From contig JADHUV010000009.1 in NCBI GenBank assembly GCA_016784355.1, forward strand, positions 8,746-72,745: DNA of 64,000 nucleotides, in the 5' to 3' direction. The notes beneath the pieces are model-generated. The model was not told the DNA's origin, ran no database searches, and saw nothing but the letters and a program-made list of their open reading frames with translations. This DNA is from Nitrospira sp. GTDB lineage: Bacteria > Nitrospirota > Thermodesulfovibrionia > UBA6902. The position numbers were made by a program, and so were the translations under genes. This document shows positions 53,178 through 61,195 of the stretch, one piece after another. Numbering within the stretch: position 1 is the first letter of the stretch; each line of letters begins with the position of its first letter.

Positions 53178-55367
53178 GTGTATAATCGAATGGTTCGTGT
53201 ACTTTCTTGTATGGCAGTTGTGCTGATACTGGCCGGTTATTTTTCATTCGCTTATGCAGAGTATGTGCCGGGTGAGGTTCTGGTTAAGTACAGGGACGGC
53301 AGCATGATATCTGAGAGTACGCTTTCCGAGGATGCCGGAATACAGCAGAAAAAGGATTTCCGTGCGATCCGGCTGCATCACATGGCGCTTCCGGAAAATA
53401 TGTCAGTGCAAGAGGCAATAGCAATTTATCAGCAGGATCCCAATGTTGAGTATGCAGAGCCCAATTATATTGTTGAAATAAATACTATTCCGGATGATAC
53501 TGATTTTACAGGTTTGTGGGGCATGCACAATGAAGGACAGACTGGGGGAGCAGTAGATGCGGATATTGATGCCCCTGAGGCCTGGGAACTTACTGTCGGA
53601 TCCGAAGATGTCATTGTGGCGGTAGTTGATACAGGGGTGGTTTATACACATCCGGACCTTAGTGCAAATATATGGACGAATTCCGGAGAAACCAGCTGCG
53701 TCGATGGTATTGACAATGATGGTAACGGCTATATTGATGATTGTAATGGCTGGGATTTTGTCGGCAGTGATAATGATCCTACAGACTATAATGGACATGG
53801 CACGCATGTAGCCGGAACTATTGCTGCGGTAGGAAATAATGCAGACGGCGTTAGCGGTGTGATGTGGAGAGCAAAGATTATGCCTCTTAGATTCCTGGGT
53901 GTAAATGGCACAGGCACTACCGCAGATGCTGTATCAGCGATACTTTATGCCTCTGCCAATGGCGCTCATGTTATAAACAATAGCTGGGGCGGCGGTGGAT
54001 ATAGTCAGGCATTGAAGGATGCTATAGATGCATCAGATACGGTGGTGGTATGCGCTGCCGGCAATAGTGGCAGTAATGTTGAGAGCACTCCATTTTATCC
54101 CGCCAGTTACACGAGTTCCAATATTATCTCTGTTGCCGCTACAGACCACAATGATCAATTGGCTGCTTTTTCCAATTATGGCATTACGTCCGTAGATATA
54201 GCCGCCCCCGGCGCTGGTATATACAGCACTGTACCGGTAATTGGCTATGGGGCACCGGTTACTGTTTACAGTCAACAGAGTTTTGAGGGTGCCTCCGGTG
54301 AACTTCCGCTGCTGGGCTGGAACCGGGGCGGAGCAAATTCCTCCTGGTCAGTTACGAGCGGTACCGGTACAGATGGAAGTAACAGCCTTGAGGACAGTCC
54401 CGGGGCTGACTATAGTAACAGCACTGGCTCCTGGGCAGGTTATATGACCCCGATAACCTCGGTGAAGGACAATATATACACTCTAACATTCAGCTGGAAG
54501 GGTGAGCTGGAAAATTATTTTGATTATCTGGATATTAACTATTCTCTGGACGGAAGCTCCTGGGACTGGGTTGATTACCGTACGGGCAGCACCAGTGGAG
54601 ATTTTGAGTCAGACTCCTCTGAGGATCTTACAAGCATTGCGGAGTCTTATGATGAATTTTATTTTGGCTTCGGTATTACTGCTGATAGCTCCGTAACCAG
54701 CGAGGGTGTGAGCATTGATGATATTGAATTAACTAGAACTCCTCTGCGGATTAGCAGTTACGGCTATTCAAGTTATAACGGGACATCCATGGCCGCTCCT
54801 CATGTGGCCGGGGTTGCAGGGCTTGTCAAGGCGCTGCATCCGGAATTTTCCAATCTGCAGATTCGGAGTGCGATAATAAACAGCGTAGATGTAAAAGCGG
54901 ATCTGGTGGGAAGTATCGCAACCGGAGGCAGACTGAATGCCTATGGGGCCCTTGTTGAAACGAATATCGATGTTATCAGTGATGGCAGCGGTGACAGTGA
55001 AACTGTTGTAGTGCCGGGAAGCAACTCAGGTATAGTTGAGGCAGCAGCCGGCGGTGGCGGCGGCGGTGGCGGCTGTTTTATCGCAACTGCGGCATACGGA
55101 AGTTTTATGCACCCGTATGTCAGGGATCTCAGAGAGTTCAGGGATGATTATTTATTGAGCAATTATCCGGGCAGGCTTTTTGTATATATGTATTACAAGT
55201 ACTCACCGCCTGTAGCGAATATTATAAAAGACAGCGAAGGCCTGCGGTTTGCATCAAGGATATTGCTGGCTCCAGTTGTTGCAGCAGTTACGATGCCTTA
55301 CCATGTACTGACATTAATGCTTGCAGGGGGTTTCATCTATATGCTCCGCCGCCGCAGAGTCCGGTAG
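53178..55367 (+). CDS. secreted subtilisin-like serine protease (S8) with inserted domain and Gly-run / CFIATAAYGS / TM / RRRR C-terminal tail
   Basis: signal peptide; catalytic D (VAVVDTGV), H (HGTHVAGT), S (GTSMAAPHVAG); about 170-aa insert between oxyanion Asn and Ser; C-terminal GGGGGGGGCFIATAAYGS...TM...RRRRVR. Confidence 0.85.
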   Translation: MYNRMVRVLSCMAVVLILAGYFSFAYAEYVPGEVLVKYRDGSMISESTLSEDAGIQQKKDFRAIRLHHMALPENMSVQEAIAIYQQDPNVEYAEPNYIVEINTIPDDTDFTGLWGMHNEGQTGGAVDADIDAPEAWELTVGSEDVIVAVVDTGVVYTHPDLSANIWTNSGETSCVDGIDNDGNGYIDDCNGWDFVGSDNDPTDYNGHGTHVAGTIAAVGNNADGVSGVMWRAKIMPLRFLGVNGTGTTADAVSAILYASANGAHVINNSWGGGGYSQALKDAIDASDTVVVCAAGNSGSNVESTPFYPASYTSSNIISVAATDHNDQLAAFSNYGITSVDIAAPGAGIYSTVPVIGYGAPVTVYSQQSFEGASGELPLLGWNRGGANSSWSVTSGTGTDGSNSLEDSPGADYSNSTGSWAGYMTPITSVKDNIYTLTFSWKGELENYFDYLDINYSLDGSSWDWVDYRTGSTSGDFESDSSEDLTSIAESYDEFYFGFGITADSSVTSEGVSIDDIELTRTPLRISSYGYSSYNGTSMAAPHVAGVAGLVKALHPEFSNLQIRSAIINSVDVKADLVGSIATGGRLNAYGALVETNIDVISDGSGDSETVVVPGSNSGIVEAAAGGGGGGGGCFIATAAYGSFMHPYVRDLREFRDDYLLSNYPGRLFVYMYYKYSPPVANIIKDSEGLRFASRILLAPVVAAVTMPYHVLTLMLAGGFIYMLRRRRVR

Positions 55368-57468: not shown

Positions 57469-58041
57469 TTAATGCTCGTGTTTAAGCGGGAAATGTTCAT
57501 GAACATTCTTTAGCCTTTCTTTGAAATCAAACTTGTACTTTGGATCAAGTTTTTCATTGAAAGGACTTTTGCCGCCGTGACATCGCAGGCAGATTGCTTC
57601 ACTTTCAGAAGGAATCTGCAGCCCTGCAGCCTTTACATCAGCCAGTTTATGCTTTTTGTCTTTCTTCATTATCTTGGAATAATCGCTGCCTGCACCATGA
57701 CATGATTCACACTGAACTCCCGCGAGTTTTGGAGTTGCCTCGATGCTGGTAAAGCCGGTGGCCTCGCCGTAGCCGGTTGTATGGCATTCAAGGCACTCAG
57801 GATCTGCGGTGTAATCCTTTGCAGGATCGAGCCCTGCCTTTGTCTTTTCCTCTGCTTTTATTCCGGGTTTCAGGTTTTCAAAGCTGTTAGCCATGGAAGT
57901 TTCATTCCATGACTTAAACTGCTTTATGTGACATGCCTTGCATTTTTTTGCTCCGATATAATCGGCATTAGCGTCTACGGCTGAAAAGTACAGCGATAAA
58001 ATGAATACGGATACTGCAATTGATAATAATTTTTTCACCAA
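57469..58041 (-). CDS. periplasmic tetrahaem c-type cytochrome
   Basis: 190 aa; signal peptide; CKACH, CLECH, CESCH, CLRCH. Confidence 0.8.
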   Translation of the reverse strand: MVKKLLSIAVSVFILSLYFSAVDANADYIGAKKCKACHIKQFKSWNETSMANSFENLKPGIKAEEKTKAGLDPAKDYTADPECLECHTTGYGEATGFTSIEATPKLAGVQCESCHGAGSDYSKIMKKDKKHKLADVKAAGLQIPSESEAICLRCHGGKSPFNEKLDPKYKFDFKERLKNVHEHFPLKHEH

Positions 58042-58129
58042 TTCACCTCTTTAAGATAGATTTTTTTCTTAATTTACAATAGCAATTAATTGTGAATTAT
58101 CTGTGAATAGCATATGGACAAGAAAAAAA

Positions 58130-58199
58130 TGGCGGCGGAGGCAGGATTCGAACCCACAGCCTTGCGGCCAATGGTGTTCAAGGCCCGGCACTTCCTCCA
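58130..58199 (-). pseudogene. decayed class-II tRNA (tRNA-Ser-like) copy: intact T-arm, long variable arm and 3' acceptor, but D-arm largely deleted and acceptor/anticodon stems mismatched
   Basis: reverse complement ...GCCGCAAGGC-T-GTGGG-TTCGAAT-CCTGC-CTCCGCC-G-CCA; 5' GGAGGAAG cannot pair with CTCCGCC; about 16 nt missing relative to tRNA-Ser at 59736-59821. Confidence 0.5.
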
Positions 58200-58418
58200 T
58201 GATCACCTAACCCGCTGATTCCTTTATGTTTTAAAAATTTGGCTTTTCTCTTGCATCATCTGGTGTCGGCTTAAATTAGAAAAAAATGTCTGCAGACATT
58301 TTATATGTTAAAAAGATGTGCTTTAGCCAATATATACAACGGCTATTATATTATCATGAAAGATGAAATATTTACAATCGATTGCGCCCTTCCCGCTGCC
58401 TGCTGCAGTGTACTGTCC

Positions 58419-59315
58419 TTAAGAGGGAGTGCGTAAATCTTTTATCTCGGCAGCGAACTCAGCATTGACCGCTGTCCCTGCGTCAACGGCCTCTTCGTGC
58501 CGGGCCGGCTTGATGTGTTCGCCCGGGCTGCCGCAGTAAATACAGCAATTATTCTCAAAAATTTTTTTCCTCAGTTCATCAGAAAAGCCGGACGCAAGGA
58601 CCCCGGCGGGCAGCGCAAACATCGCTATCCCGAGCATCGCTATAAATGCACCGACAATTTTTCCGGTAATGGTAATCGGATAGATATCGCCGTAGCCGAC
58701 AGTGGTCAGGGTGGCGACTCCCCACCACATTGCCGCCGGAATACTCGAAAAAGCCTCCGGCTGGGACTCGTGTTCAAGAAAGTAAATGAGGCTTGATGAG
58801 ATAATCAGAAGCATAAACAGGATAAAGGCGTTTACTGCCAGCCCCTCTTTTTTTGCTCTAAGTACATTGTTAAGCGTTTTAAAAGACTCAGAATAACGGC
58901 CGAGTTTAAACAGACGGAAAAGTCTGAACAGCCTTACAGCCCTGAGTATCCTTCCGTCAAGGTCCGCAAACAGCAGGAAGAAGGGAACTATAGCCAGCAG
59001 GTCTATTATGGCCATGGGTGTAACCATAAACCTCAGTCTTCCTATAACAGGCCTGCTGAACTTCTCGTGCACTGTGCAGGACCATACTCTCAGGATATAT
59101 TCTATGATGAAGACGGCTATGGATATAGTGTCAAGAATTATAAACAGGTGATAGTATTCAGCGTGAATGCTCTGAACCGTCTCGAGTATTACGCAGACGA
59201 CATTTATAGCGATAAGAGTGACGATGAATATGTCAAATATCCGGCTCGGAAAATCATTGTCCGAGGACTTATCCAGTATTTCGTTTACTCTCTTTTTGAT
59301 TTTGTTCTTATTCAT
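58419..59315 (-). CDS. voltage-gated K+ channel (6TM, S4 sensor, TVGYGD selectivity filter)
   Basis: S4 RAVRLFRLFRLFKLGRY; pore TTVGYGD. Confidence 0.85.
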   Translation of the reverse strand: MNKNKIKKRVNEILDKSSDNDFPSRIFDIFIVTLIAINVVCVILETVQSIHAEYYHLFIILDTISIAVFIIEYILRVWSCTVHEKFSRPVIGRLRFMVTPMAIIDLLAIVPFFLLFADLDGRILRAVRLFRLFRLFKLGRYSESFKTLNNVLRAKKEGLAVNAFILFMLLIISSSLIYFLEHESQPEAFSSIPAAMWWGVATLTTVGYGDIYPITITGKIVGAFIAMLGIAMFALPAGVLASGFSDELRKKIFENNCCIYCGSPGEHIKPARHEEAVDAGTAVNAEFAAEIKDLRTPS

Positions 59316-59453
59316 ATTTTCATATATACAGACACGGTCAATGGCCTGTATAAATATATCGAGTCAGTTTGCGATTAACTTTAATGCTCCCTGCGTTCAT
59401 CCCCATGCAAGATTGCTCAAATATCACTGGACTTCCCCCGCTTTTGTAGACAC

Positions 59454-59624
59454 TCACCCGGTTGCATTTTCAGCTAATTCGTAGTCCTGCGGGCTGATGT
59501 ACCCGAGATAGCTGTGACGCCTCTTTGAATTAAAGAACATTTCGATATAATCGAAGATGTCACTCTTTGCTTCATCACGGGTATCGTAGATCCTCCAGGC
59601 GGGATGATCTAATTTTGCATGATC
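59454..59624 (-). pseudogene. IS3-family transposase (OrfB/rve) C-terminal remnant, about 55 codons
   Basis: minus-strand frame encodes ...HPAWRIYDTRDEAKSDIFDYIEMFFNSKRRHSYLGYISPQDYELAEN*, the canonical IS3 OrfB C-terminus; upstream part absent. Confidence 0.6.
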
Positions 59625-59735
59625 TCAGGACATAAAGCCCGATCTGCCTTTGACCGCTGCACTATAGTTAATGAAGAAAATTTTAAGAATCCATCGGGAA
59701 AGGTTTTTAAGCGCCTTGAAGGCAGAAGAAAAAAA

Positions 59736-59821
59736 TGGCGGAGGAGGTAGGATTCGAACCCACGGATCTTTCGATCAACGGTTTTCAAGACCGCCGCCAT
59801 CGACCACTCGGCCACTCCTCC
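59736..59821 (-). tRNA. tRNA-Ser (anticodon UGA), class II with long variable arm, encoded CCA
   Basis: reverse complement folds as GGAGGAG-TG-GCC..GGC-G-GCGGT-CTTGAAA-ACCGT-T-GATCGAAAGATC-C-GTGGG-TTCGAAT-CCTAC-CTCCTCC-G-CCA. Confidence 0.85.
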
Positions 59822-59872
59822 GTAATTTTTTCTTATTTTACAGTTACATGATAAAACTGTGTATCTATATAA

Positions 59873-61195
<1,323 letters not shown>

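Follow-up and report, generated by a model that had tools for sequence, protein, structure and literature searches.

Islander maps genomic islands that were integrated by tyrosine integrases by looking for an intact tRNA gene (tDNA), a fragment of the tDNA's 3' end that lies downstream in the same orientation, and foreign DNA between the two (Hudson, Lau and Williams 2015, PMC4383910). Cis-mobilizable elements (CIMEs) derive from integrative and conjugative elements (ICEs) or integrative and mobilizable elements (IMEs) by deletion: the genes for integration and transfer have been lost, but the attachment (att) sites are kept (ICEberg 2.0, PMC6323972). Here, we describe a 1.6-kb insert next to the tRNA-Ser(UGA) gene of Nitrospira sp., an uncultured member of the Nitrospirota, in a stretch of 64 kb (the window). 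The insert lies between the intact tRNA gene and a second, non-functional tRNA-Ser-like sequence, and it contains an intact gene for a predicted voltage-gated K+ channel and the right end of an IS3-family insertion sequence (IS). Our results support the view that it is an ordinary remnant of an eroded tDNA island, in a CIME-like end state, and hence an instance of a well-known kind. An earlier reading of this DNA from its letters alone (the sequence-only reading) had proposed the scar of a decayed, tRNA-targeted integrative element. The repeat, the conserved gene order in relatives, and the IS fragment all support that proposal, and we infer the mechanism from them.

We use "downstream" for the direction of transcription on the minus strand, where serS is followed by a 51-nt spacer, the intact tRNA-Ser(UGA), a 10-nt T-rich trailer, 113 bp, the IS3 remnant, a 112-bp spacer, and the channel gene. 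After the channel gene come a 220-bp AT-rich spacer, the tRNA-Ser-like copy, the same 10-nt trailer, 78 bp, and the gene for a c554-like cytochrome. Since the minus strand encodes both serS and the tRNA, the 51 nt that separate them follow the stop codon of serS: the tRNA is downstream of serS, not upstream as had been stated. The only coding features of the insert are the channel and a 52-codon IS3 stub; the other frames in its spacers are open for about 43 codons at most.

The locus resembles the islands mapped by Islander in most respects. A full tRNA gene and its cognate tRNA-like sequence have the same orientation on the same replicon; the tRNA-like sequence extends to the tRNA's 3' end and lies downstream of the intact gene; and the apparently foreign DNA between them is missing from the same site in eight related genomes. 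The repeat covers the region from the T-arm to the acceptor stem, which is one of the known sublocations for crossover. However, there is no gene for a tyrosine integrase inside the insert, and its length (1,606 bp) is below the 2 to 200 kb that Islander accepts. Also, the displaced copy is nearly a whole tRNA, with a diverged 5' two-thirds, instead of a clean 3' fragment. The likeness to CIMEs (PMC6323972) is that a small insert without any genes for integration or transfer lies between att-like repeats and has kept its cargo. Unlike this locus, whose repeat is identical at 36 of 38 positions and for which a cognate ICE or integrase is not known, CIMEs are defined by intact attL and attR sites at which a related ICE can act.

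A search for repeats in the window identified a family (D1) of two 38-nt copies that are in the same orientation, are 95% identical (36/38), and are spaced 1,606 bp apart (blastn within the window: E = 4e-12). The same distance, from start to start, separates the two tRNA copies, in line with the earlier estimate of about 1.6 kb. The 3' end is identical in both copies, through the CCA and the 10-nt trailer (CCGCCATTTTTTTCTT). To the 5' side of the 38-nt block, the similarity is weaker but real: the local alignment score was reached by just 8-19 of 2,000 shuffled sequences, and 19 of 25 positions are identical in the stretch from the anticodon loop to the variable arm. A pairwise alignment also shows that both copies share CTTGAA as the core of the anticodon loop. 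The same alignment bears out the identical T-loops and the class-II variable arm that the sequence-only reading had described (GGCC-GCAA-GGCT in one copy and GATC-GAAA-GATC in the other, with a GNRA-type loop in the second copy).

The two copies differ in function and probably in origin. The copy next to serS was correctly recognized as an intact tRNA-Ser(UGA): ARAGORN and Rfam both identify it, it folds into a cloverleaf with a D-arm, and it is the sole tRNA that ARAGORN found in the window. Twelve relatives have a tRNA at this position with 90-97% identity to the intact copy, whose 3' end (CCTACCTCCTCCGCCA) is identical in the relatives that have the same acceptor stem. The tRNA-Ser(UGA) genes of the clade match it at 78-83 of 86 positions. 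In contrast, the tRNA-like copy matches any of these genes at only 53-58 of 69 positions, about equally poorly for all of them, and it has unique bases in the T-stem and the acceptor strand. Because of this difference in distance and the exact 3' end that is common to the relatives, the sequences clearly indicate that the intact copy is the native tRNA gene. It occupies the position of a regenerated tDNA, on the attL side. As for the tRNA-like copy, ARAGORN did not call a tRNA there, and Rfam gave no match to its tRNA family, even at E ≤ 10, or to any other family. Its minimum-free-energy structure differs from a cloverleaf and is no more stable than those of shuffled sequences (z = -1.27). 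Thus, the alignment, the fold, and both detectors agree with the earlier view that this copy, which has lost about 16 nt of the D-arm and has mismatched stems, cannot function as a class-II tRNA-Ser.

The earlier description of this sequence as a decayed tRNA copy holds in that it is tRNA-Ser-like and non-functional, but it does not seem to be simply a decayed duplicate of its neighbor. First, its identity to the intact copy is uneven: the 38-nt block at the 3' end differs at 2 positions, and the adjoining 30 nt, from the anticodon loop to the variable arm, differ at 11 (Fisher p = 0.0015). Second, the stem of the variable arm shows two double changes that preserve the structure (GATC/GATC to GGCC/GGCT, with an A-T pair replaced by G-C and a T-A pair by C-G). 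Such compensatory changes are not expected from neutral decay, which suggests that the variable-arm region evolved inside a working tRNA-Ser other than the neighboring one. Because the differences are clustered and the variable-arm changes are compensatory, the tRNA-like copy fits better as a hybrid att site, made of the near-identical block and a tRNA-like arm that would have been carried by the element, than as the product of uniform decay. We also considered whether it might be a remnant of tRNA-Ser(GCU), which directly follows tRNA-Ser(UGA) in two of the other loci that we examined (L015 and L016); we rejected this because the copy keeps the UGA anticodon loop.

Comparison with relatives indicates that the insert is specific to the window's lineage. 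A scan for serS in species-representative genomes yielded 13 loci from metagenome-assembled genomes (MAGs) of the Nitrospirota/Thermodesulfovibrionia (72-80% identity). In six of these (L002, L005, and L007 to L010), serS is 77-80% identical and is followed by one tRNA-Ser(UGA) and then the cytochrome (60-67% identical, 80-440 bp downstream of the tRNA), with gidA next except in L007. In two others (L003 and L004), the order is serS, tRNA-Ser, and gidA. Each of these eight loci has a single tRNA, and none of them contains a homologue of the channel or a match to the IS3 stub (tblastn). Furthermore, blastn-short found no second tRNA copy or fragment at the serS locus in 12 relatives. Since the channel, the IS stub, and the tRNA-like copy are all missing from the relatives' loci, and the insert is absent from the same site in all eight relatives that can be read through the region, the roughly 1.6 kb between the repeats is a lineage-specific insertion at the 3' side of the tRNA. 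Thus, neither of the two results that the sequence-only reading had named as grounds against it was obtained: no tRNA finder calls the tRNA-like copy, and the relatives do not have the channel at this place. All independent assemblies of this organism whose contigs continue beyond the tRNA have the insert, at 100% identity, and no polymorphism was seen. No serS between 81% and 100% identity was found in a collection of 5.8 billion proteins, so we found no strain with an empty site and the insertion cannot be dated.

The insert also contains part of a mobile element, which is a further point in favor of an integrated element. The 52-codon frame (59457-59612) matches Pfam rve_2 (7.7e-11) and positions 332-369 of the 369 positions of the NCBIfam model transpos_IS3. 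The homology to IS3 covers 39 codons of this frame (59478-59594) and stops abruptly at 59594. Thus, the IS3 identity proposed earlier was right, but the conserved part of OrfB is 39 codons in a frame of 52, and not about 55. Over these 39 amino acids, the stub is 67% identical to residues 260-298 of a 308-residue OrfB from a Pseudomonas IS3. Past the stop codon, GAGTGTCTACAAAAGCGGGGGAAGTCCA agrees with the terminus of the Pseudomonas element at 20 of 28 positions, which places the right end of the IS at 59428; this end (59428-59455) had not been recognized before. Like its Pseudomonas relative, the remnant has the C-terminus of OrfB and an inverted repeat that ends in ...GTCCA (5'-TGGAC... on the plus strand). 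It differs from a complete member of the family, which would be about 1.2-1.3 kb, in that only about 185 bp are left; about 1.1 kb are missing, including OrfA, the DDE (rve) core, and the left end. No second copy of the inverted repeat was found in the window. DNA matches to the stub fall under annotated IS3 transposases on plasmids. The stub cannot transpose, nor can it account for the duplication: IS3 elements duplicate a few base pairs of their target, as compared to about 80 nt here, and we rejected IS3 transposition as the cause.

The cargo is a full-length gene that aligns end to end with its family. Its best relatives of solved structure are Kv7 and Kv1 channels (E of about 1e-36). The Ion_trans domain, the TVGYGD filter, and an S4 motif with regularly spaced arginines (RAVRLFRLFRLFKLGR), the last two of which are conserved in the family alignment, all agree with the earlier prediction of a voltage-gated K+ channel gene between the tRNA copies. 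The predicted protein resembles the six-transmembrane voltage-gated K+ channels of other prokaryotes (the KvAP/MVP type) in its six transmembrane segments, in having an arginine at every third position of S4, and in its filter. However, it scores far below the cutoffs of the NCBIfam equivalogs for named channels (52 vs. 300 bits for the model of MVP from Methanocaldococcus), and it has features of its own, namely, a family-specific CxxCG motif at the C-terminus and a 40-amino-acid tail. In the C-terminal region (58419-58560), the motif follows S6 (CIYCG here and CPHCG in homologues) and precedes a tail of variable length, which in the window's protein is among the longest of the family. This tail may be metal or redox sensing. 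Rfam also reported a match to K_chan_RES, the RNA-editing signal of eukaryotic K+ channels, in the region that encodes the pore and S6 (58587-58700; 30.1 bits, E = 0.003, under the gathering score of 51). We rejected an editing signal, as the match most likely reflects similarity of conserved coding sequence.

The suggestion that the channel may have been acquired horizontally draws more support from its relatives than from its composition. The nearest homologues are only 55-61% identical, and those with names are from Theionarchaea, Methanofastidiosia, WOR-3, and unclassified bacteria; the clusters of the top matches had no names. Among the top 120 matches, there are no Nitrospirota names for the channel except for the window's own, as compared to 13 for serS. 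Relatives of the channel in viral contigs are at most 29-38% identical. The contigs of three homologues show unrelated housekeeping neighborhoods, with no conserved island, tRNA, or integrase. Together with the lineage-specific insert, these results favor acquisition from elsewhere. The composition gives a weak hint in the same direction: the channel's GC content at third codon positions (GC3) is 0.542, the highest among 45 open reading frames in the window (z of about +2.4). On the other hand, its overall GC content is 46.5% vs. 44.8% for the window, and its choice of synonymous codons is average.

We propose that the insert began as a circular mobile element whose attachment sequence resembled a tRNA-Ser. 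One Campbell-type crossover with the chromosome, at the 3' end of tRNA-Ser(UGA), would have integrated it. The catalyst would most likely have been a tyrosine integrase, like those of genomic islands that target tDNAs. On the attL side, next to serS, the crossover would have left the functional tRNA; on the attR side, next to the cytochrome, it would have left a non-functional tRNA-like hybrid. Both contain the near-identical 38 bp, and the 5' two-thirds of the tRNA-like copy would then be foreign. A later deletion, with one endpoint inside an IS3-family element, would have removed almost everything else, including the integrase, and would have left the IS right end (about 185 bp) and one intact and presumably selected cargo gene, for the Kv-type K+ channel. 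A deletion that took the integration module together with most of the IS would fit the truncation point of the IS, which is 113 bp away from the tRNA trailer. We give this reading (Campbell-type and probably integrase-mediated integration of a circular element that was later cut down to one selected gene) a probability of about 60%. It predicts an insert-free site of the form ...GGTTCGAATCCTACCTCCTCCGCCATTTTTTTCTTGTCCATATGCTATTCACAG... If an integrase was responsible, then the parent element is expected to carry GGCCTTGAACACCATTGGCCGCAAGGCTGTGGGTTCGAATCC next to a tyrosine integrase gene.

Several results weigh against this reading. The insert contains no integrase, excisionase, transfer, or phage gene. 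In an island, the integrase gene normally sits beside the tRNA trailer, but here this position is taken by the 113-bp stretch, which has no homology to IS3 (none was found upstream of 59594), no open frame that matches a family, and no similarity to the spacers of the relatives. The insert is only 1.6 kb, and the displaced copy spans nearly the whole tRNA and not just a 3' fragment. We did not find a related intact element, a donor tRNA, or an attP-like sequence: two scans of viral contigs and two of metagenome contigs from JGI, all for exact matches to a diagnostic stretch of this copy, had 0 hits. A scan of the genes that follow tRNA-Ser in three relatives (L011 to L013) found no integrase there either. 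The overall GC content and codon choice of the channel are native-like. And the intergenic spacers of the relatives are too diverged to mark the boundaries between host and insert independently. No alignment of their tRNA-cytochrome spacers was clearly above shuffled sequences, and for this reason we dropped an apparent spacer match to L010 that we had seen by eye. The repeat, the lineage-specific insertion, and the identities of the channel and the IS stub can be read from the sequences. As no integrase survives, no donor was found, and the composition is near native, the mechanism (with its circular intermediate, integrase, and later deletion) and the foreign origin of the 5' part of the tRNA-like copy are what we infer.

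The two copies might instead have a local origin: tRNA-Ser(UGA) and its trailer could have been duplicated in tandem, with one copy decaying in place and the channel and the IS3 arriving separately between them. This would require at least three independent events at one spot, and a second copy or fragment is present in 0 of 12 relatives. It would fit two features of the second copy: it resembles the tRNA along almost all of its length, 5' acceptor strand included, and the genes that it matches most closely are the clade's own tRNA-Ser(UGA) genes. The native-like composition of the insert and the empty scans of viral and metagenome collections are also what a local origin would lead us to expect. 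However, neutral decay should spread differences evenly, while those observed are clustered, and two pairs of the variable arm have changed in a compensatory way. A divergence of about 19% between the copies also sits uneasily with an IS fragment that retains a frame of 52 codons and 67% identity to a distant IS3. Overall, a local origin seems unlikely. Another alternative retains the capture of foreign DNA but not the integrase. If circular or linear DNA with a tRNA-Ser-like stretch entered the cell, then host homologous recombination or homology-facilitated illegitimate recombination could have used the 38-bp block as an anchor. About 38 nt of near-identity is roughly the minimum for RecA-dependent exchange, and the block, at 95% identity, is of that length. 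Still, a single 38-bp homology is a very poor substrate for recombination, and the repeat covers exactly the sublocation, from the T-arm to the 3' end, that the island integrases use; the 3' ends of tRNA genes are their canonical targets (PMC4383910). That no remnant of an integrase is detectable anywhere in the insert, and that the IS fragment shows other rearrangement activity at the site, would suit this alternative, which we consider rather improbable. Once the integrase is lost, integration with or without it leaves the same scar, and the sequence cannot separate the two.

It is also conceivable that the tRNA-like sequence is not a relic. Despite the lack of a D-arm, it might be a functional RNA element, such as a processing or termination signal for the channel transcript, or a usable att site of a cis-mobilizable mini-element; indeed, CIMEs with att sites but without integration genes have been documented (PMC6323972). 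It does retain the T-arm, a variable arm with a GNRA loop, and the CCA end, and it lies on the same strand as the channel gene, 220 nt downstream of its stop codon. But its fold is not tRNA-like and is no more stable than shuffled sequences, it does not match any Rfam family, and it has no homologue in any relative or scanned collection, so that conservation cannot be demonstrated. We view a functional element of this kind as very unlikely. The corresponding proposals for the whole 1.6-kb unit, that it is a living mini-element without an integrase, or that the tRNA-like sequence has taken on the role of a signal, for RNase P/Z processing or for termination, between the channel transcript and the cytochrome, are similarly unlikely. 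If the insert were a mini-element, its attR would be recognized in trans by an integrase encoded elsewhere, and the Kv channel gene could hop between tRNA-Ser sites.

The locus does not reveal a new mechanism or system. On the preferred reading of integration followed by deletion, it shows how a Kv-type K+ channel gene entered a core region (with AddAB, RsmA, MnmG, the cytochrome, and serS) and outlived the element that carried it. It would be a clean, small example of the erosion of an island down to a single selected cargo gene, and of a tRNA-fragment scar that can be recognized after the integrase is lost. For annotation, the features to record are a pseudo-tRNA, an IS3 fragment, and a channel that was probably acquired horizontally; the arrangement can also help to explain why assemblies of this organism break here.

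Table 1. Features of the insert and of its flanks, in the order of transcription on the minus strand
Feature	Positions	Strand	Basis or remarks
serS (seryl-tRNA synthetase)	59873..61156	-	Pfam tRNA-synt_2b 2.7e-48, Seryl_tRNA_N 1.1e-23
Intact tRNA-Ser(UGA)	59736..59821	-	ARAGORN; Rfam tRNA 57.6 bits, E 3e-11; cloverleaf is the minimum-free-energy fold
Direct repeat, copy 1	59726..59763		10 nt of trailer and the final 28 nt of the tRNA, comprising T-arm and 3' acceptor strand
Unassigned 113 bp between tRNA trailer and IS stub	59613..59725		No open frame that matches a family
IS3-family remnant	59428..59612	-	Final 39-52 codons of OrfB, stop codon at 59457-59459, and right-hand terminal inverted repeat at 59428-59455
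K+ channel gene, predicted voltage-gated type (6TM), 298 aa, intact	58419..59315	-	Pfam Ion_trans 2.6e-37, Ion_trans_2 5e-15
AT-rich spacer between channel stop and tRNA-like copy, 220 bp	58199..58418		About 37% GC
Non-functional tRNA-Ser(UGA)-like sequence, in attR position	58130..58198	-	16-nt gap in D-arm, broken anticodon stem, two acceptor mismatches
Direct repeat, copy 2	58120..58157		Same basis as copy 1
c554-like multihaem cytochrome	57469..58041	-	Pfam Cytochrome_C554 1.7e-26

The genes on either side of the insert belong to the host and fix the boundaries of the ancestral arrangement: serS, whose orthologues adjoin tRNA-Ser in related MAGs, on the left, and the c554-like cytochrome on the right. 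Beyond the cytochrome lies mnmG/gidA, on the opposite strand (MnmG was identified by Pfam and NCBIfam). The wider neighborhood is a conserved housekeeping region that also contains AddAB, RsmA, and a subtilase. This last protein is a subtilisin-like protease of 729 amino acids (53178-55367) that ends in a run of glycines and then a CFI-box-CTERM sorting domain (NCBIfam NF041770, 9.3e-27). It is two genes away from the insert, with gidA and the cytochrome in between, and is unrelated to it.

More broadly, the pairing of the gene for seryl-tRNA synthetase with that for its cognate tRNA recurs widely. In 39 of 80 loci (L002-L081), serS is followed on the same strand by a tRNA-Ser at a distance of no more than 400 nt; these come from Nitrospirota, Desulfobacterota-like MAGs, and many Bacillota, and several of the other loci are cut by contig ends. 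The 3' side of the tRNA is a recurrent breakpoint in the clade, independent of the insert studied here: in L003 (7593-8100) and L004 (1748-2271), there is no c554-like cytochrome between tRNA-Ser and gidA, and in the more distant L011 to L013, entirely different genes follow the tRNA. Another assembly of the same organism, from ENA (L082), agrees with the window (100% identity) as far down as 59185, a position within the channel gene, but the last 49 nt of its contig (7973-8021) are wholly unlike the window (TGTCGAGTTCCAGCACAAATCCCC...), and this 49-mer is absent from the window. This end may be an assembly artifact, or it may come from a subpopulation in which the channel gene itself has a further insertion.

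Two minor features of the noncoding DNA were also found. The AT-rich spacer contains a perfect 20-nt palindrome (AAAATGTCTGCAGACATTTT) at 58283-58302, 117 nt past the stop codon of the channel, followed by a run of T's on the minus strand. We suggest that these could form a weak terminator, although a scan for consensus terminators did not call this palindrome. At the same site, CATTTTTTTCT resembles the tRNA trailers (repeat family D2). Finally, an A/T-rich motif of 17-19 nt (TGTAAA[A/T]TAAGAAAAAA on the minus strand) occurs at 58060-58078, just upstream of the ribosome-binding site of the cytochrome, and at 59824-59842, just upstream of the intact tRNA, with 94% identity. This pair could be a shared promoter-like element or could be due to chance in AT-rich DNA; a promoter-like site was called at 59863-59835.

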